Below are positions 1-8,043 of a stretch of 8,043 nt of DNA, piece by piece; the stretch's first letter is position 1; the number at the start of each line of letters is the position of its first letter. The DNA lies in the IMG/VR virus record IMGVR_UViG_2617270947_000017; one strand, given 5' to 3'. The notes under the pieces are model-generated. The model saw only the letters and a list, made by a program, of their open reading frames with translations, did no database searches and had not been told where the DNA came from. Position numbers and translations under genes: made by a program. The stretch comes from a virus (taxonomy: Duplodnaviria; Heunggongvirae; Uroviricota; Caudoviricetes).

Positions 1-1254
1 ATGCCAAAACTCACAGATATGCAGATCCGCGCATGGATAAAGGCGGGAAACAGATTTGATGGCAAGGCAGACGGCAACGGCCTTTATATTTGCTACCCCA
101 AAAACTACACAGTCCCGTTCTGGCGATTCCGCTATAAGCTCGCAGGAAAGCAGCGGGCTATGGTTATAGGCTCTTACTCCGAACTGTCACTATCAAAAGC
201 CAGAGAAACAGCAAAAGAGCTGTCAGCCAGAGTTGCTCTTGGCTATGACGTAGCAGCAGAGAAACAGGAACGAAAAGCTGAAGCACTGGCAAAAATGGAG
301 GCTGAGAAAAACGCCATGCGTGTTTCAGATCTGGCCTCCGAATACTTCGAGCGCCAGATACTTCCGAGATGGAAACATCCCGATATCCTTCGCCGGAGAA
401 TTGATAAGGATATTAACCCCTGCATTGGGCATATGAAGGTAGAGGACGTTAAGCCACGCCACATTGACGACATGTTGAAAGGTATCGTTGACCGAGGAGC
501 ACCAACGATAGCAACAGATGTATTACGCTGGACACGCCGTATCTTTGACTATGGGATAAAACGCCACGCTCTGGAGATAAACCCTTGTTCAGCGTTTGAA
601 GTATCTGATGCTGGTGGTAAAGAGGTTTCCCGCGACCGTTGGCTAACTCGCGATGAGCTTATCAGGCTATTCGAGGCTATGCGCACCGCAAAAGGATTCA
701 GCCGCCAAAACGAACTGACATTTAAACTATTGCTGGCACTATGCGTTCGTAAGATGGAGTTATGCGCCGCACGATGGGAAGAGTTTGATTTAGATGGTGC
801 GGTATGGCATTTGCCGGAAGAACGCAGCAAAAACGGAGACCCTATTGATATACCTCTACCTTCCCCAGCCGTTGAATGGTTGAGAGAGCTACACACCTTT
901 TCATGTAATAGCGCATGGGTGCTTCCGGCCAGGAAGATGCAAAACAGAATGATCCCACATATTCAGGAAAGCACTTTACCCGTAGCACTGGCTAAGGTTC
1001 GCGCCGAAATGCCGGATGTGCCTAATTTCACGATTCACGACTTCCGACGCACCGCACGTACTCATTTAGCAGCATTGGGTGTTGATCCTGTCGTGGCGGA
1101 ACGATGCCTCAATCATCGCATTAAGGGCGTAGAGGGGATTTATAACCGTCATCAGTATTTTGATGAGCGTAAAGCAGCACTGGCACAGTGGGCAGATCTG
1201 CTGGTGGCACTGGAAAGCGGAAAAGACTACAACGTAACGCCAATCAGAGCATGA
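1..1254 (+). CDS. Tyrosine site-specific integrase, P4-type phage integrase family (417 aa, appears complete)
   Basis: C-terminal catalytic region has the box II-like HDFRRTARTHL motif and the tyrosine region GIYNRHQYFDERKAALAQWADLL, which I recall as closely resembling the ...YNRSDYLEQRR...WADL tail of E. coli IntA-type P4 integrases. N-terminus (LTDMQIRAWIKAG...GLYICY...WRFRYK) fits the arm-binding domain of this family. ATG is at window position 1, so upstream context (att/tRNA) is not visible. Confidence 0.9.
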   Translation: MPKLTDMQIRAWIKAGNRFDGKADGNGLYICYPKNYTVPFWRFRYKLAGKQRAMVIGSYSELSLSKARETAKELSARVALGYDVAAEKQERKAEALAKMEAEKNAMRVSDLASEYFERQILPRWKHPDILRRRIDKDINPCIGHMKVEDVKPRHIDDMLKGIVDRGAPTIATDVLRWTRRIFDYGIKRHALEINPCSAFEVSDAGGKEVSRDRWLTRDELIRLFEAMRTAKGFSRQNELTFKLLLALCVRKMELCAARWEEFDLDGAVWHLPEERSKNGDPIDIPLPSPAVEWLRELHTFSCNSAWVLPARKMQNRMIPHIQESTLPVALAKVRAEMPDVPNFTIHDFRRTARTHLAALGVDPVVAERCLNHRIKGVEGIYNRHQYFDERKAALAQWADLLVALESGKDYNVTPIRA

Positions 1255-1272
1255 TGAGAGGAAATATTCATA

Positions 1273-2223
1273 ATGAAATTACCTGCGCATAAATATTATT
1301 CTTTGGATAAAGCAGCCAAACTGGCCGGATGTGAAGTATCCGATTTAATACACTATGCAGCAATTGGGGTTTTAGAAATATGTATAAAAATTCCACCTAT
1401 TGAATTGTTTTACCATTACCCAAAAAATGAAGATGCCGAGCCAGAATTACTTAAAGTTGAAACAGATAGTATTTTTCATATAGATACAAAAGCAGCACAT
1501 GAGAATTATCTCCTTGATCTGAGCAATAAGGCAGATAATCTCGAATCATATGGCTTATCATCACCTGATTATAAAAATAGCGATAACTATATGTATTTTA
1601 TGAGGTTTTCATACAAATCAGAACATTTCTCAGTTATAGAGCGATACAATGTTGGGAAGGATGAAAGAGATATCGAAAGATGGAGCGGTCTATTAGCAAT
1701 TCCGCCTGCGTTCATAGATAACGATGAGCGGGAGCTATCAGAATGGGATGATTGGGAGATCTCTGTATGCGAACTGATGCCTCCGAGATGTGACGAGTTT
1801 AGCAAATCGAATAATTATGAAATCGGAGCTTTTTATATTGACGGCTGGTATGAAATAAGCCGAAACAAAATGTATATAACTGACTATGAATACAATCTTC
1901 TTATAAATGGAGGAAAATATATTTATGACAGACCCATGCACAAACCATCCGCAAACAAGTTATCCAATGATATAAATACGCTAAAAGTTAATAAACGTGC
2001 CGAACGGTACGCAGTCAATAGGGAGAAACTATTAAAATCTGCAATTTATATACTTAGTAAGTATCCAAATGAATGCAGGGGAGAAAGGAAAGAAATAAGC
2101 CCTGAGAAGTGGCGTGACTGTCTTGTTCGTCATTTAGACGAAGTTCCACCACTTATGATAACTAATGAAGATGTAATTCTTAAACATCTACGATCTGCGG
2201 CAAATGGCAAAGTGGATAGTTAA
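1273..2223 (+). CDS. Hypothetical protein, AT-rich horizontally acquired cargo ORF (316 aa); possible N-terminal helix-turn-helix; function unknown
   Basis: Single uninterrupted 316-codon ORF; GAGG-containing RBS about 12 nt upstream of the ATG. GC by hand count on sampled 60-nt lines is about 25-33 percent, against about 45-50 percent in the integrase. Residues about 10-35 (YSLDKAAKLAGCEVSDLIHYAAIGVL) look like an HTH; the rest is rich in Tyr/Asp/Glu/Asn/Lys with no catalytic motif I recognise. Followed by a hairpin terminator. Size and position between int and alpA are reminiscent of yfjH in E. coli K-12 CP4-57 (recalled, not verified). Confidence 0.75.
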   Translation: MKLPAHKYYSLDKAAKLAGCEVSDLIHYAAIGVLEICIKIPPIELFYHYPKNEDAEPELLKVETDSIFHIDTKAAHENYLLDLSNKADNLESYGLSSPDYKNSDNYMYFMRFSYKSEHFSVIERYNVGKDERDIERWSGLLAIPPAFIDNDERELSEWDDWEISVCELMPPRCDEFSKSNNYEIGAFYIDGWYEISRNKMYITDYEYNLLINGGKYIYDRPMHKPSANKLSNDINTLKVNKRAERYAVNREKLLKSAIYILSKYPNECRGERKEISPEKWRDCLVRHLDEVPPLMITNEDVILKHLRSAANGKVDS

Positions 2224-2233
2224 CTTACTATAG

Positions 2234-2260
2234 AGGTACTGCAAAATTACAGTACCTTTT
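2234..2260 (+). terminator. Candidate Rho-independent terminator after the cargo ORF
   Basis: Stem AGGTACTG (2234-2241) pairs with CAGTACCT (2250-2257) around an 8-nt loop CAAAATTA, followed by a TTTT run ending at 2260; starts 11 nt after the cargo stop codon. The T tract is short, so strength is moderate. Confidence 0.5.
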
Positions 2261-2262
2261 CA

Positions 2263-2278
2263 TTGTATATCTATACAG
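2263..2278. promoter_or_regulatory. Palindromic operator-like site in the alpA upstream region (TGTATA-TC-TATACA; resembles an SOS/LexA box)
   Basis: 2264-2277 is a perfect 6+6 inverted repeat with a 2-bp centre. The 16-mer TTGTATATCTATACAG (2263-2278) matches the recalled LexA consensus CTGT-(AT)4-ACAG at 14 of 16 positions, but position 1 is T rather than the conserved C. Lies between the cargo terminator and the alpA start, overlapping weak candidate promoter hexamers (TTTTCA...TAGATT). Confidence 0.3.
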
Positions 2279-2329
2279 CTAGATTTCTCGTAACGAAGCA
2301 ACAACTATCGCTAAGAGGTTACGGGAATC

Positions 2330-2533
2330 ATGAACATCGACACTATCCCTACAAAAGGCTATATCAGACGCTTTCGCCTGGCTGAATTGCTGGGCGTTAG
2401 TGTATCCACCATCGACCGTAAAGTAAGAAACGGTTCACTACCACGTCCGGTAAAGCTGGGAGAAAAAATAACTGCGTTTGATGCGGTTGAGATTCACAAC
2501 TGGCTGGCAGAACGCCGCGGGAAGGTGGCCTGA
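2330..2533 (+). CDS. alpA: AlpA-family phage transcriptional regulator / excisionase-like HTH protein (67 aa)
   Basis: RFRLAELLGVSVSTIDRKVRNGSLPRPVKLGEKITAFDAVEIHNWL matches the AlpA/HTH_17 pattern (HTH, then G.FP.P.KLG, then a tryptophan-containing tail). Typical size and position downstream of a P4-type integrase. Confidence 0.85.
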   Translation: MNIDTIPTKGYIRRFRLAELLGVSVSTIDRKVRNGSLPRPVKLGEKITAFDAVEIHNWLAERRGKVA

Positions 2534-2964
2534 TGGAAAAGAAAAACCGCCCATTACAGGCGGCTAATTCAGATATTCGCGTATCTGATATTACGCCCCT
2601 TACAAAATCACTTCAAGCACCAAAGCGCACACCGAAAAAGCATCGTGCCCGAGTCTATATGCTGCGTACTGGTATAGAGGGATGGACAGAAAATGACATT
2701 CTTCGCTACTGCCGTCTGTCTTCTGGTCGTAACTATGCAACAGAGTTAGAACGCCAGCTTGGAATCACTCTGGAGCGTATCGACGAAAAGAATCCTGATG
2801 GTATCGGAACACACCTTCGCTACCGTTTCTCCTGCCGTGGTGATGTTCTGAAAGTGATCACTCATGTTAACCATCTTGCGAACATAAATGATCACAACGG
2901 ACTTTCTCAGCAGGAAATTGCCGACATTCTGAAACTCTACCCGGACGCGTTTAACGCCGCCTAA
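2533..2964 (+). CDS. Hypothetical protein (143 aa), translationally coupled to alpA
   Basis: ATG overlaps the alpA TGA stop (ATGA at 2531-2535). Basic N-terminus (PKRTPKKHRAR) suggests nucleic-acid binding. No motif I can assign. Confidence 0.65.
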   Translation: MEKKNRPLQAANSDIRVSDITPLTKSLQAPKRTPKKHRARVYMLRTGIEGWTENDILRYCRLSSGRNYATELERQLGITLERIDEKNPDGIGTHLRYRFSCRGDVLKVITHVNHLANINDHNGLSQQEIADILKLYPDAFNAA

Positions 2965-2976
2965 CGGAGACTGAAA

Positions 2977-3810
2977 ATGAACATCGAAAAAAGCAGATTA
3001 ATTTCTGAGGCCGCCCCTCATCTGAACGCCTCTCTGGGCACAATTAACGGTAATGAATTTGCCGCAATTGTCCCGGTTATTCCTGGTCATATCGGTGGGC
3101 GTGAAACCAATATTGTTAGCGCAAAAGCGTTACACAAAGCGTTGGGCGTGGGAAAAGACTTCTCTACATGGATCACTGATCGCATCTCTGAATATGACTT
3201 CACCATTGGGCACGATTACTCAGTCCATAAAACTATTTCCCCAAATTTGGGGAAAAGCCCGAATAGCGCGGCTTACAGCAAGATTAAGCACTCTGGCAGA
3301 CCCGGTAAAGACTATCTGTTAAGTGTCGGAATGGCGAAAGAACTGGCAATGATCGAACGCACCGAACAGGGCCGCGCTATCCGCCGTTATTTCATCCAGT
3401 GCGAGGAAGAATTACAGCGTAGCGTGCCTGAAATCGCCGCCCGCTATCGTCGCCAGCTAAAAGCCCGTATCAGTGCCGCAAACAACTTTAAGCCGATGTG
3501 TGATGCGCTGAATATGGCCCGTGCCGAGCTGGGTAAAACGACGCAGCAGCGCCACTACAGCAACGAGAGCAACATGATCGCCCGTATCGTGCTGGGTGGC
3601 ATGACGGCGAAGCAGTGGGCGCAGGCAAATGGCATTACTGGCGAACCACGGGACAGCATGAACGCAGCACAGCTTGAACACCTCGCCTATCTCGAAAGCA
3701 CCAATATCACGTTAATTGATATGGGCATGGAATATGAGCAGCGCAAAGGAGAACTCACCCGCCTGTCGCAACGCTGGCTCGCCAAGCGTCTGGAGGCGGT
3801 CAATGTCTAA
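2977..3810 (+). CDS. Phage antirepressor-like protein (277 aa; Ant/KilAC-type motif)
   Basis: GGAG RBS 9 nt upstream of the ATG. Central motif DYLLSVGMAKELAMIERTEQGRAIRRYFIQCEEEL is one I recall from phage antirepressor (Ant/KilA-C-type) proteins. Exact domain assignment needs an HMM search. Confidence 0.7.
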   Translation: MNIEKSRLISEAAPHLNASLGTINGNEFAAIVPVIPGHIGGRETNIVSAKALHKALGVGKDFSTWITDRISEYDFTIGHDYSVHKTISPNLGKSPNSAAYSKIKHSGRPGKDYLLSVGMAKELAMIERTEQGRAIRRYFIQCEEELQRSVPEIAARYRRQLKARISAANNFKPMCDALNMARAELGKTTQQRHYSNESNMIARIVLGGMTAKQWAQANGITGEPRDSMNAAQLEHLAYLESTNITLIDMGMEYEQRKGELTRLSQRWLAKRLEAVNV

Positions 3811-3985: not shown

Positions 3986-5046
3986 CCGTCCAGAAGAACA
4001 CATTTTCACTGGCTGGTATGTCGCCAAAATCCAGCAATATGACAGCAAAGTCAGGTATTAATACAGCAGATACAAGCAAAATTTATCATTTGCTGGTGGT
4101 AGGAGCGGATGCCTTAACTATGTCAGAAATTACGGGCGATGAAGTTAGCGTTGAGAAGGTCAGCGGCTGCGCCAGAGAATTTCTGGTCGTAGATGACTTT
4201 CTCTGCTCGCGTAGTGACTCCACAAAAACCTTCGTCCACACGCGCGACGTTAACGAAATGAGCGCGATGTATTGTGCATCTGGTGCTTCCAATAGTGAGT
4301 TTTCGGAGTCCATAAAAAAGAGCTTGCCGTTATGCGGCAACACGGTTTATGGTTATAAGGCACCTCATAAAACGGGTGCCGGGATTGGCGTCCTGGTAAA
4401 TCGAATGGCGACATATGACGCGCCGAGCGTCTTTTTTTATGTCGTAGGTCTGACTCACCCATTTTTTGGGCGTTGGTGTATAATCCAGCGCCTTTGTCAA
4501 TCAATGGTGGCTCAGGCAGGGGCTTCTTCGGAAGCGCCGGTATCCATTCGAGCCGGTTACGCCAACCCTGTCTGGGCTACCACCAGCGAAATTGGCGTTT
4601 CCGGTGGTAGCGTTACATGCTATCGAATGGAGGCTGCCACATGCTGGCTACTACCCCTACCCAAAAACCGCAATTTATCTGGATTATCGCCGCAGTTCGC
4701 CGCGATTGCCCGACAATTACCGCCAAAATTCATCATATTGCTGCCGAGTCTGAACGCGATGCTCGCCGTTCTCTGGTGCGCGATCACGTCTGCTTTTTTG
4801 CTGGTCGTATCCGCATGGAGGTGGCTCATGATTAAAACCTACGATGTGCATATGGATCCCCTCGAACGCACAAGCCAGATCATCACACTGACAGAAGTGA
4901 TTAACGACATTCTGGTGAGCAACTCTCCCTCACGAGACGAAAGACTGAAGGCGTTACTCGCGATATTGGATCTCGCCGTTCGTGACGTTCATTTCCTGCT
5001 GGAAGGTGGCGAAATGCCAGGAAAAACGGGGGCAACCAATGAATAA
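3979..5046 (+). CDS. Uncertain: long frame-1 ORF (355 codons), probably not one protein; 5-prime part about 3979-4430 looks coding, remainder ambiguous
   Basis: GGAGG (3966-3970) 8 nt upstream of ATG 3979, which overlaps the previous stop. Codon pattern in about 4060-4420 looks coding (G-rich first positions, common codons). The same frame then passes through a hairpin plus T7 (4417-4438) and a TGTATAAT element (4477-4484), and over 4641-4828 is rich in rare codons (CTA, AGG, ATA, CGA, TTA) while frame 3 looks coding. Frames 2 and 3 carry stops at 4313, 4293/4296/4356 and 4445. Confidence 0.3.
4417..4438 (+). terminator. Candidate intrinsic terminator (5-bp GC-rich stem plus T7) inside the long frame-1 ORF
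   Basis: GACGC (4417-4421), loop GCCGA, GCGTC (4427-4431), then TTTTTTT (4432-4438). Orientation fits the + strand only. Confidence 0.4.
4479..4484 (+). promoter_or_regulatory. Candidate -10 hexamer TATAAT (with upstream GTG) for the small-ORF/primase operon
   Basis: Perfect TATAAT at 4479-4484 preceded by GTG; no good -35 at 16-18 bp spacing, which would fit an activator-dependent promoter (possibly AlpA-dependent; inference). About 155 nt upstream of the ORF starting at 4641. Confidence 0.25.
4641..4835 (+). CDS. Small hypothetical protein (64 aa), first of the coupled small-ORF chain
   Basis: GGAGG (4629-4633) 7 nt upstream of ATG 4641. Frame-3 codons are typical enterobacterial (CTG, GCC, CGC, ACC, GAT) whereas the overlapping frame 1 is rare-codon rich. 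Sequence [64 protein letters not shown]. An alternative start at 4617 is possible. Confidence 0.55.
   Translation: MLATTPTQKPQFIWIIAAVRRDCPTITAKIHHIAAESERDARRSLVRDHVCFFAGRIRMEVAHD
4828..5046 (+). CDS. Small hypothetical protein (72 aa), coupled to the upstream ORF
   Basis: GGAGG (4817-4821) 6 nt upstream of ATG 4828; the ATG overlaps the upstream TAA by 8 nt (ATGATTAA). Shares frame and stop with the long frame-1 ORF, so it could instead be the C-terminus of a longer product. Confidence 0.5.
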   Translation: MIKTYDVHMDPLERTSQIITLTEVINDILVSNSPSRDERLKALLAILDLAVRDVHFLLEGGEMPGKTGATNE

Positions 5047-6318: not shown

Positions 6319-6882
6319 ATGCGAAACATTGATCTTATCCGTCAGGTTATCAGTGCGTCTGAAAACAACTGGCCTCATGTGCTGGGCTGCCTGAACATAA
6401 ATGTCCCTGACTCTCCGCGCCGTCATGCTCCCTGCCCTGCATGTGGGGGTAAAGATCGATTCCGGTTCGATGACAACGGGCGCGGTAGCTTCATCTGTAA
6501 TCAGTGCGGCGCTGGTGATGGGCTGGATTTAATTAAACGCGTAAATAACTGCGACACAACAGAGGCGGCGCTTCTTGCCGCTGATGTTCTGGGTATTGAT
6601 TACCGGACAACGGAAACACCAGAAGCCACCAGCCAGAAACGGGAACAACTGGAAACCGAGCGCCAGCGACGCGAACAGGAGCGCCTGAAAAGGGCAGAGA
6701 AGGACGAACAACAAAGACGGGCTACGTTTTCCCGTCAGTTTGATGACATGCGCAGAAAGGCCGTAAATGGCAAATCTGATTATCTGGTTGCGAAAGGGGT
6801 AGGTGATTTTACATTCCCCGTGTTGCCAGATGGATCTCTGTTGCTGGCGCTGGTGAACCGCCCCGGGAATCCTGGAGACTAA
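6319..6882 (+). pseudogene. Primase N-terminal fragment (P4 alpha-like zinc ribbon plus start of TOPRIM), interrupted by an IS element at about 6853/6854
   Basis: CPACGGKDRFRFDDNGRGSFICNQCG is a CxxC...CxxC primase zinc-ribbon motif; SDYLVAKGV...[15 protein letters not shown] resembles the start of a TOPRIM domain. The reading frame runs into the IS terminal repeat, so the last codons (NRPGNPGD-stop) come from IS sequence. Primases of this type are normally several hundred residues longer. Confidence 0.7.
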
Positions 6883-6907
6883 ACTCCCTGAGAAAGAGGT
6901 AAACAGG

Positions 6908-7234
6908 ATGACTAAAAATACACGTTTTTCCCCCGAGGTCCGTCAACGGGCAGTTCGTATGGTTCTGGAAAGTCAGGGCGAATATGACTCACAATGGGCG
7001 GCAATTTGTTCCATTGCCCCAAAGATTGGCTGTACGCCAGAGACTCTGCGTGTGTGGGTTCGTCAGCATGAGCGGGATACCGGGAGTGGTGATGGTGGAT
7101 TCACCACCGCTGAACGTCAGCGTCTGAAAGAGCTGGAACGTGAAAATCGTGAACTGCGCCGCAGTAACGATATCCTTCGCCAGGCTTCCGCTTATTTTGC
7201 GAAGGCGGAGTTCGACCGCCTCTGGAAAAAATAA
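6908..7234 (+). CDS. IS3-family transposase OrfA (HTH/leucine-zipper subunit), IS629-like (108 aa)
   Basis: [57 protein letters not shown]... matches my recollection of IS629/IS1203 OrfA almost residue for residue; ends [36 protein letters not shown]. Confidence 0.9.
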
Positions 7235-8043
7235 TGCCACTGCTGGATAAGCTGCGTGAGCAGTACGGGGTCGGACCGGTATGCAGTGAACTGCATATTG
7301 CCCCGTCAACGTATTACCACTGTCAGCAACAGCGACATCATCCTGATAAACGCAGTGCCCGTGCGCAGCGCGATGACTGGCTGAAGAGAGAGATACAGCG
7401 CGTATACGATGAAAATCATCAGGTGTACGGTGTGCGTAAAGTCTGGCGCCAGTTGTTACGCGAAGGTATCAGGGTGGCCAGATGTACAGTGGCGCGCCTC
7501 ATGGCGGTTATGGGACTTGCCGGTGTTCTCCGGGGTAAAAAGGTCCGTACTACCGTCAGCCGGAAAGCCGTTTCCGCAGGCGACCGCGTAAACCGTCAGT
7601 TCGTGGCAGAACGACCTGACCAGCTGTGGGTGGCTGATTTTACTTACGTCAGCACATGGCGGGGCTTCGTCTATGTGGCGTTCATCATTGATGTGTTTGC
7701 CGGATACATTGTGGGGTGGCGGGTCTCATCGTCCATGGAGACGACATTCGTGCTGGATGCACTGGAGCAGGCGTTATGGGCCCGTCGACCGTCCGGCACG
7801 GTCCATCACAGTGATAAAGGTTCTCAGTATGTATCGCTGGCCTACACACAGCGGCTTAAGGAAGCCGGATTACTGGCATCAACAGGAAGTACAGGCGACT
7901 CGTATGACAACGCGATGGCGGAGAGCATCAATGGTCTTTACAAAGCTGAGGTAATACACCGTAAGAGCTGGAAAAACCGTGCAGAAGTGGAACTGGCCAC
8001 ACTCACGTGGGTGGACTGGTATAACAATCGACGATTGCTGGAA
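7234..8043 (+). CDS. IS3-family transposase OrfB (DDE/rve catalytic subunit), IS629-like; partial, runs off the window end
   Basis: Frame-1 reading from ATG 7234 (overlapping the orfA TAA) is open to the window end (270 codons). Hand translation gives [21 protein letters not shown]...DQLWVADFTYVSTWRGFVYVAFIIDVFAGYIVGW...HSDKGSQYVSLAYTQRLKEAGLLASTGSTGDSYDNAMAESINGLYKAEVIH..., with the DDE-integrase hallmarks. Not in the ORF track because no stop lies within the window. Confidence 0.9.
   Translation, partial: MPLLDKLREQYGVGPVCSELHIAPSTYYHCQQQRHHPDKRSARAQRDDWLKREIQRVYDENHQVYGVRKVWRQLLREGIRVARCTVARLMAVMGLAGVLRGKKVRTTVSRKAVSAGDRVNRQFVAERPDQLWVADFTYVSTWRGFVYVAFIIDVFAGYIVGWRVSSSMETTFVLDALEQALWARRPSGTVHHSDKGSQYVSLAYTQRLKEAGLLASTGSTGDSYDNAMAESINGLYKAEVIHRKSWKNRAEVELATLTWVDWYNNRRLLE

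Follow-up and report, generated by a model that had tools for sequence, protein, structure and literature searches.

What is the gene that lies between the integrase gene (int) and alpA in a phage satellite, what has been its history, and what might it do there? The question is raised by a stretch of viral DNA of 8,043 nucleotides (nt), the IMG/VR record IMGVR_UViG_2617270947_000017 (Caudoviricetes), which is referred to below as the window. Judged by architectural criteria, i.e., a 5' P4-type integrase, AlpA downstream of it and a central primase, the element in the window appears to be a Gram-negative phage-inducible chromosomal island (PICI), and its gene content suggests an EcCIMP1-like PICI satellite next to yicC. 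The slot between int and alpA is taken by an open reading frame (ORF) of 316 codons, here called ORF316. Phage satellites rank among the main vehicles of anti-phage genes, and the study of their hotspots has brought many new mechanisms of immunity to light. The evolutionary signature of the ORF316 cassette is strong: ORF316 is a real gene, under selection and accessory, and it is a recently exchanged cassette that moves between diverged islands. Its function is putative, and we put at roughly 45% the probability that it encodes a phage-conflict protein in which a variable recognition module is joined to a conserved output module. Whichever reading proves correct, the gene is a "hypothetical protein" in every database searched; what is new here is that the int-alpA junction of PICI-type islands is defined as a hotspot, together with the protein family that dominates it.

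The initial annotation of the window, made from the sequence alone, had placed a 316-amino-acid (aa) ORF of roughly 30% GC between a P4-type integrase and alpA, and most of this description has held. The chance of 316 open codons at the local base composition is ~9e-12, and the observed open run of 321 codons compares with a longest run of 196 codons among 2,000 shuffles, which places the ORF far beyond chance; both neighbors are confirmed by Pfam matches (Table 1). The start codon lies 18 nt past the integrase stop codon (1252-1254). GC content is 35.9% in ORF316 (35.6% across 1255-2260, with a local minimum of 31% at 1351-1650) as compared to 49.2% in the integrase and 50.0% from alpA to antA, so that the AT-rich contrast is real and only the figure of ~30% was overstated.

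A search of 5,426 complete E. coli genomes found the same integrase in 335, with at least four kinds of occupant in the slot beside it. The exact ORF316 allele is found in 41 genomes of the 5,426, always annotated as "hypothetical protein", and its restriction to 41 of the ~335 genomes with this integrase makes it an accessory rather than a core gene, as had been supposed. A 321-aa allele, with an N-terminal region that cannot be aligned to that of ORF316 and a C-terminal domain that is 78% identical, occurs in 77 genomes, and a 281-aa distant relative in 38, E. coli 042 included. In a further 112 genomes, about a third of the islands with this integrase, the slot is filled by an unrelated 216-aa gene with a 470-nt spacer after it. 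We rejected the possibility that the 216-aa occupant is a family member in disguise, as neither BLASTP nor hhalign related it to the main or the alternative C-terminal domains; this gene and the other slot occupants examined had no match in PADLOC, Pfam or NCBIfam. None of the four occupants is present in an EcCIMP1-type island that has a different integrase (strain TOK-001, locus L007 of our comparison). Beside near-identical backbones, the four natural E. coli slot genes (316, 321 and 281 aa and the unrelated 216 aa) provide a compact experimental system.

Exchange of the cassette can be read from a comparison with the island of E. coli XJ5.2 (L019). Synonymous divergence (dS) between the two islands is 1.28 for int and 0.87 for alpA and only 0.032 for ORF316, which is 98.1% identical. 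The tract of near-identity (1199-2403) matches at 97-100% in every 60-nt block, as compared to 65-87% on both flanks, and its breakpoints lie inside the flanking genes, in the 3' end of int on one side and in the 5' end of alpA on the other. Because so low a dS sits between such diverged neighbors in a near-identical tract, ORF316 is a mobile cassette, recently exchanged between diverged islands.

ORF316 thus behaves like the cargo of satellite hotspots, with variable content at a fixed position and a history unlinked from that of the core genes; hotspot cargo is known to swap between elements with near-identical cores and to be unlinked from core genes (PMC13586616). The parallels with the satellite defense hotspots, both those of P4 (Rousset 2022, PMC9122126; PMC13586616) and those that PMC11364771 describes for PICI ends, include varying genes at a fixed position in near-identical elements, near-identical cargo in diverged ones, AT-rich cargo, modular mixing of protein parts and genes left unannotated by defense databases. 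The resemblance has limits, in that one family accounts here for roughly every second slot and keeps its place in Enterobacterales and Aeromonas alike, and no recognized defense system was seen in the int-alpA slot of the loci examined. The slot is therefore polymorphic, and exchanged between diverged backbones, as the proposal of a variable cargo site would have it; at the level of the family, however, alleles occupy about half of the E. coli slots, which makes the family less an arbitrary cargo than a semi-resident part of the integration zone and leaves a regulatory role open. The published four-zone organization of PICIs (PMC10111431) makes no mention of a gene family inside the integration zone, and yicC is not named among the E. 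coli defense-island hotspots in PMC10121019.

A further feature of the slot is a conserved spacer of ~95 nt between int and the slot gene in islands with 321-, 281- and 318-aa alleles (2761-2855 in L004 and L005, 6908-7000 in L009, with equivalents in L015 and L016). It holds a long inverted repeat, GATTGAGCC...GGCTCAATC, followed by a T-run in some loci; a terminator, an attenuator and a scar left by recombination are all conceivable. The spacer is missing from the window and from L014, L017, L019 and L022, in which the gap from int to the slot gene is 7-21 nt.

Exchange of whole cassettes is accompanied by a second level of mosaicism, inside the gene. In a test of co-divergence across 16 loci (120 pairs, Spearman rho of identities), Int and AlpA are tightly coupled (rho 0.85), and the N-terminal region of the family protein is coupled neither to Int (-0.15) nor to AlpA (-0.06) nor to its own C-terminal domain (-0.04). 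The C-terminal domain shows weak coupling to Int (0.34) and AlpA (0.37), and across Enterobacterales loci it is 58-78% identical between proteins whose N-terminal regions are 17-46% identical. The window-type N-terminal region has in addition been found joined to two other, unrelated C-terminal segments. The two halves of the gene thus follow separate evolutionary courses, unlinked to one another as well as to Int and AlpA. Between the 316- and 321-aa alleles the C-terminal region is 78% identical in protein and only 76% identical in DNA, so that its conservation reflects selection on the protein rather than a recently shared segment; a recombination footprint was rejected on the same ground, and since the real breakpoints lie in int and alpA. 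From these alignments, the C-terminal domain would be under strong purifying selection. In one Enterobacter locus (L011) it is ~73% identical to that of the window next to an Int of 29% and an AlpA of 24% identity and unrelated downstream DNA; whatever the domain contacts is therefore not specific to one island, and binding to the integrase, AlpA or island-specific DNA is unlikely.

These results bear on the idea that the protein serves the integrase, i.e., that it is an enlarged Xis-like accessory or recombination-directionality factor (RDF) that would shape the architecture of attP, attL and attR or set the directionality of the integrase. The gene does always adjoin a P4-type integrase. Yet its N-terminal region is uncoupled from Int, and it is AlpA, the known RDF-type partner, that follows Int closely. 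One and the same integrase functions next to any of four slot occupants, of which one is unrelated to the family, and excision of EcCIMP1 needs only int and alpA (PMC11773190). We regard an integrase accessory as highly improbable.

The structure of the protein was modeled with AlphaFold2 (AF2) from an alignment of 25 family members (A1), which gave a mean predicted local distance difference test score (pLDDT) of 80.8. The models suggest three parts: a winged helix with an acidic, hypervariable insertion in its wing, a flexible linker, and a basic four-helix domain at the C-terminus. The helix-turn-helix (HTH) that the initial annotation had seen near the N-terminus receives modest backing, with pLDDT ~95 for residues 11-40 and an hhalign alignment of the N-terminal region in register with the HTH of AlpA (P ~0.002, probability 8-16%); residues 8-40 also superpose weakly on MerR-family regulators and Xis. 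Pfam does not support it, as neither the full-length protein nor 107 family members nor eight spliced constructs gave a winged-helix match. The eight splices (residues ~1-42 joined to ~196-222) were directed at a winged helix split by an insertion, and none matched HTH_17, AlpA or MerR. Because Pfam is negative and hhalign backs the N-terminal half weakly only, it is the AF2 models that the split winged-helix idea draws on. In them, the strand and helix that appear to close the fold are placed at E200-203/H204-211 in ORF316 and at E202-205/H206-214 in the 318-aa class. ORF316 is similar to AlpA, HTH_17 and excisionase proteins in the predicted beta-alpha-alpha-beta order of residues 8-40 and in its register with the AlpA HTH, and differs from them in having no Pfam match, a predicted insertion of ~155 residues in the wing and an extra C-terminal domain, being about five times larger.

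The remainder of the protein had been described as acidic and rich in Tyr and Asn. This is true of residues 46-222 only (isoelectric point, pI, 4.5, with 17 Tyr and 13 Asn; the family median pI of the middle domain is 4.8), and the last 77 residues are basic (pI 9.3) and bear the strongest conserved motif of the family, ER.A.NRE.L.K.AI.LLSKYP.ECRG..KEISPEKW...PPL.ITNE.VILKHLR.A.NGK. Of the 22 invariant columns of A1, 21 fall in this domain, i.e., in the last ~75 residues, and R13, E14 and C31 are invariant in a broad alignment of the domain (A3). When the C-terminal domain was sought in other architectures with a profile, all matches were fragments of family members, and its best match among Protein Data Bank (PDB) sequences had E = 0.49. 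The middle region, on the other hand, cannot be aligned among the three allele classes of A1, and homology between the middle domains of the classes was rejected (hhalign probabilities <2%); two AF2 models made independently, of the 316-aa and the 318-aa class, agree broadly in the order of its secondary-structure elements.

An acidic, fast-changing domain encoded next to int might also belong to an establishment or anti-defense factor, one that is co-expressed with the integrase upon entry and whose variable domain neutralizes host restriction or defense, e.g., as a DNA mimic, with alleles that track the defenses of the hosts. Apart from the acidity of the middle domain, the evolution of the gene, which is rapid, modular and uncoupled from the backbone, would fit such a role, as would a likely co-transcription with int, which must be expressed on entry. 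Against it, no likeness to Ocr, ArdA or other known anti-defense folds was found in the PDB and viral fold libraries, the model of the acidic region is a compact alpha/beta domain and not the elongated shape of a DNA mimic, the conserved basic C-terminal domain would have no obvious role, and the cargo of satellite hotspots is mostly defense rather than counter-defense (PMC13586616). An anti-defense role is, in our estimation, very unlikely.

The initial annotation had recognized no motif in the protein beyond the HTH, and searches of Pfam, NCBIfam, PADLOC, PHROGs, PDB sequences, and the PDB and viral fold libraries gave no homologue of known function. Pfam matched neither ORF316 nor any of 107 diverse family members, NCBIfam did not match ORF316, and the PDB sequences and both fold libraries held no homologue of known function for it. 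In particular, Pfam recognized no Bro-N, KilA-N, AntA, Rha or related module in ORF316 or the 107 relatives; phmmer searches across the loci with the N- and C-terminal regions matched only genes of the family, and a literature search by protein accession found nothing. Two PHROGs, both of unassigned function, match relatives: phrog_7144 (313 positions) matches 22 of the 107 members (best E = 1.7e-22) and aligns along the full length of some, and phrog_13283 matches the N-terminal ~44 residues, with ORF316 itself at a non-significant E = 0.019. The window protein falls below significance, and with both PHROGs lacking a function no annotation is gained. Known systems were also considered. Tai, a known PICI system, was rejected because it lies downstream of pri and not in the slot, and the newly named P4 systems Crouga, Bandua, Aernus, Toga, Reve and Hailong because their domain content is different.

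Novel in the sense of having no homologue of known function, the gene is not a one-off. A HMMER scan of 1.84 billion representatives placed its family in 118 clusters at 50% identity, and a protein database search gave 61 clusters, all from Enterobacterales, of 260-340 aa, unnamed and without Pfam domains. Full-length homologues of 45-62% identity occur in Serratia, Pantoea, Yersinia, Klebsiella and Enterobacter, and the named members, all "hypothetical", come from Klebsiella, Enterobacter, Cronobacter, Salmonella, Brenneria, Pluralibacter and Aeromonas. The family is rare, with matches in five species-representative genomes. It is an orphan family of unusual modular design that keeps to one slot across two bacterial orders: in 26 of 26 family loci from Enterobacterales and Aeromonas the gene directly follows a P4-type integrase on the same strand, and it directly precedes alpA in all but three. 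The three, L011-L013 from Enterobacter, have the order int, an 80-aa AlpA-like ORF, family gene and Bro-N gene; their member is of the window class and lies in a PICI within prophage late genes (terminase, portal, Mu_F-like), a setting that resembles the helper-embedded PICIs of PMC10111431. The placement after the integrase is kept even by the most distant members, those of Klebsiella and Aeromonas. In Klebsiella the attachment (att) site is different, with Toprim and DUF927 genes downstream. In Aeromonas (L027, 9991-12873, and L028) the module int-X-alpA, where X is the family gene, heads an island that lacks a primase, on which account the module appears not to be restricted to satellites. 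The Aeromonas island carries Lamassu genes LmuA (9.2e-37) and LmuC (4.6e-16) and an SMC-type gene, downstream of alpA and outside the slot.

Such constancy of position is the principal attraction of the main rival reading, namely that ORF316 regulates the life cycle of the island in the manner of Stl, holding alpA, int or excision quiescent through contacts with DNA or with Int and AlpA until a helper-phage protein, bound by the insertion, frees control; the diversity of alleles would then be the mark of an arms race with helpers that evade induction. If so, the family would bear on how Gram-negative PICIs recognize their helpers. The order int, X, alpA is kept from E. coli to Klebsiella and Aeromonas despite different att sites and cargo, the N-terminus is predicted to be a winged helix like those of Xis, MerR and AlpA, the C-terminal domain is basic, and its divergence is weakly coupled to that of Int and AlpA. 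In Staphylococcus aureus pathogenicity islands (SaPIs) stl adjoins int, and the int-adjacent position of the family gene matches this. Likeness to SaPI Stl extends to a predicted HTH-type domain at the N-terminus, a divergent candidate sensor region and alleles that differ between similar islands. Moreover, the switching-on of alpA in Gram-negative PICIs has been described only as helper-dependent induction (PMC11773190), and some satellite regulators serve as immunity factors too, as PMC11846896 reports for Stl2.

The comparison with Stl breaks down elsewhere. There is no match in sequence or fold; the most conserved part of ORF316 is the basic C-terminal domain and not the HTH; and ORF316 lacks two defining features of Stl, divergent transcription and indispensability, since it runs in the same direction as the alpA operon and is absent from EcCIMP1-type islands and from the 112 genomes in which the 216-aa gene takes its place. 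EcCIMP1 is helper-inducible without it, and the island already has its P4-type C4/isrK RNA immunity. The recognition helix of the predicted winged helix is devoid of basic residues, and alleles with near-identical alpA leaders beside them have different versions of it; the conservation of the C-terminal domain in L011, beside diverged Int and AlpA and unrelated DNA, makes an island-specific operator or partner unlikely; and the primase-less Aeromonas element looks like a defense island rather than a satellite. For these reasons we hold a Stl-like regulator to be possible but rather doubtful. A bolder synthesis, which we consider unlikely, would let the family supply the helper-phage sensor that is still missing for a broad class of Gram-negative satellites and integrase islands, as a putative split winged-helix protein of a fold without known relative, in which the inserted domain would capture a specific phage protein and the C-terminal domain would switch between quiescence and alpA-driven induction while interfering with the phage, so as to add an allele-specific protein layer on top of P4-type RNA immunity.

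The reading that we favor, that of a phage-conflict protein, is suggested by the hotspot behavior of the gene together with its variable-input, conserved-output design, and by the presence of a separate RNA immunity in an island type of which one member, EcCIMP1, works without the gene; with the C4 and isrK RNAs present and EcCIMP1 functional in its absence, ORF316 is not needed as a repressor of the island. The literature points the same way. According to PMC11364771, which cites Fillol-Salom 2022, immune systems are found at the 5' or 3' ends of PICIs, and most of the unknown-function loci assayed at P4 hotspots, six of eight chosen at random, protected against phages (PMC13586616). In the mechanism proposed, the hypervariable acidic insertion would recognize a phage-encoded protein, of either a competitor or a helper phage, and the conserved basic C-terminal domain would deliver a shared output through contact with nucleic acid or with a conserved machine of the host or phage; the outcome would be interference with phage development, to the benefit of island and host. 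If this is correct, ORF316 would represent a new single-gene defense mechanism without a standard effector domain.

Several points weigh against the phage-conflict reading. The initial annotation had pointed to the integrase-proximal junction as a recurrent site for variable cargo, often anti-phage defense, and although PMC11364771 agrees with this for PICI ends, no known defense gene was seen in the int-alpA slot of the ~26 loci inspected. PADLOC-DB v2 contained no family that matched ORF316 at E <= 1 and none that matched its Klebsiella and Aeromonas relatives, and no effector chemistry (nuclease, NADase, protease or pore) is recognizable in the protein. The lone fold signal, a predicted winged helix of the DNA-binding type, would be no less at home in a regulator than in a defense protein, and the variable recognition helix without basic residues is as awkward here as it is for a regulator. 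Lastly, the family was never found outside the integrase-proximal slot in the 26 loci, where defense genes would typically change context; this confinement may indicate a functional tie with Int and AlpA, but it can also be explained by exchange of cassettes through homologous flanks, as the tract at 1199-2403 shows.

How ORF316 is expressed may be judged from the anatomy of the locus. The short gap from int leaves no room for a separate promoter, and a consensus scan of the + strand found no sigma-70-like promoter within 900-2600; together with the 18-nt spacing and the Shine-Dalgarno sequence, this leads us to infer that ORF316 is translated from the int transcript in the quiescent island. 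The terminator that had been credited to the gene is plausible as a hairpin of -15.6 kcal/mol (z = -3.2), even though a consensus terminator scan did not call it. Related hairpins occur 3' of the family gene in other loci, with a poor T-run in several relatives. The hairpin is a probable intrinsic terminator that would insulate the int-ORF316 transcript from alpA. A LexA box was considered at this place and rejected, as the spacing is CTG-N8-CAG and not N10 and the orientation of the half-sites varies between loci.

Beyond the hairpin, the leader of alpA is itself predicted to fold, with the Shine-Dalgarno sequence (2314-2318) at the 3' edge of the loop and the 3' arm of the stem between it and the AUG. 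Such a stem is predicted in 13 of 15 alpA leaders and not in the leader of the EcCIMP1 type; the stems come from single-sequence folds, and RNAalifold gave no pairs because MAFFT misaligned the 5' arm. Variants of the two arms compensate for one another between loci (CCCGTAAC/GTTACGGG, CCCATAAC/GTTATGGG, CCCCTAAC/GTTAGGGG and AGTAAC/GTTACT), and in L018 and L026 stems of unrelated sequence occupy the same place. The stem is probably a translational control element for alpA; alternatively, it may be a putative palindromic site for binding of a protein. On this layout, ORF316 would be separated from the inducible alpA operon by both the hairpin terminator and the structured alpA leader.

Table 1. 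Coordinates of ORF316, its parts and the surrounding features in the 8,043-nt window
Feature	Coordinates (nt)	Strand	Remarks
P4-type tyrosine integrase, 417 aa	1-1254	+	First gene of the island; Pfam Arm-DNA-bind_3 1.3e-19, Phage_int_M 1e-16, Phage_integrase 6.8e-17
Exchanged cassette tract	~1199-2403	+	Last ~55 nt of int, ORF316, intergenic region, first ~75 nt of alpA
Shine-Dalgarno sequence of ORF316	1256-1261	+	GAGAGG, 11 nt before the ATG, read off the sequence
ORF316, 316 aa	1273-2223	+	ATG start, 35.9% GC; uncharacterized family residing in the int-alpA slot
First half of Xis/MerR-type winged helix (predicted), residues 8-40	1294-1392	+	beta-alpha-alpha-beta; semi-conserved motif Y.L..AA..L.C...DL.H.A..G
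Hypervariable acidic alpha/beta region, residues ~45-197	1405-1863	+	pI ~4.5; modeled as a wing insertion (~155 residues)
Conserved strand and helix, residues 198-212	1864-1908	+	MYITDYEYNLLINGG; motif in all classes; appears to close the winged helix in the models
Disordered linker, residues 223-239	1939-1989	+	pLDDT <50 at 224-238; second model of low confidence at 226-250
Basic four-helix C-terminal domain, residues 240-313	1990-2211	+	AF2 helices H241-263, H265-268, H277-286, H299-310
Probable terminator	2232-2266 (hairpin 2232-2259)	+	10-bp stem, 8-nt loop, T-rich tail
alpA leader stem-loop	2282-2329	+	Fold z = -2.0; adjoins the cassette
alpA, 67 aa	2330-2533	+	AlpA-family regulator, right flank of the slot; Pfam Phage_AlpA 2.2e-08
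143-aa gene	2533-2964	+	Overlaps the alpA stop codon (ATGA); kept across genera in related islands
AntA-family protein gene	2977-3810		
ash family ORF, 355 aa	3979-5046		Contains both isrK and C4
isrK	4360-4437		Rfam, 67 bits; within the ash region
C4 antisense RNA	4500-4587		Rfam, 79.5 bits; within the ash region
Primase zinc ribbon	6319-6879		Zn_Ribbon_Prim 4.2e-16
IS3-family element	~6856-8043		
orfA of the IS3-family element	6908-7234		
ALIL frameshift pseudoknot	7189-7305		120.9 bits; in the IS3-family element

The backbone in which the cassette resides is shared with islands of known position. Up to 6855 the window is colinear, at 97% identity, with an island beside yicC in E. coli SFE8, and in several of the E. 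coli genomes examined the site adjoining yicC is the target of the integrase. The order of genes is int, ORF316, alpA, a gene for a 143-aa protein, AntA antirepressor, DUF4222, the "ash" region, small ORFs, a TOPRIM/DUF927 primase and further genes, and the major ORFs of the window are all on the + strand, running away from the 5' integrase. EcCIMP1, a PICI whose induction and transfer by helper phage Kapi1 have been demonstrated experimentally and require int and alpA (PMC11773190), and other Gram-negative PICIs share with it int, alpA, the AntA antirepressor, DUF4222, Ash with C4 and isrK, and the TOPRIM/DUF927 primase, all in one direction; the genome of the EcCIMP1 strain, MP1, itself matches the segment of the window from the 143-aa gene to antA (hit H73). 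EcCIMP1 differs in having another integrase, an att site in the thrW/proA region and no ORF316 gene, and in the EcCIMP1-type island of TOK-001, which stands in for MP1, the only annotated ORF between int and alpA is one of 129 aa on the opposite strand. The dependence of induction, excision and packaging on a helper phage is experimental only for the related EcCIMP1 (PMC11773190).

With C4 and isrK matched by Rfam, the island carries a P4-type CI/seqA RNA immunity module in its PICI backbone, and the 355-aa ash ORF that encloses both may be partly or wholly non-coding. The copy of the island in the window has suffered an insertion: its primase, of which L001 has an intact homologue in the form of a 2.76-kb TOPRIM/DUF927 gene, is cut to 187 aa by the IS3-family element, and ORF316 is intact regardless. 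Because of this truncation the window copy probably cannot replicate.

Two genes between alpA and the ash region call for brief mention. The 143-aa protein, which has no match in Pfam or NCBIfam, is labeled "PM1773 family protein" by RefSeq in some genomes. The AntA-family protein has a standard AntA/anti-repressor domain at its N-terminus, and its residues 165-266 match the PADLOC candidate defense model PDC-S22 (E = 1.8e-11).

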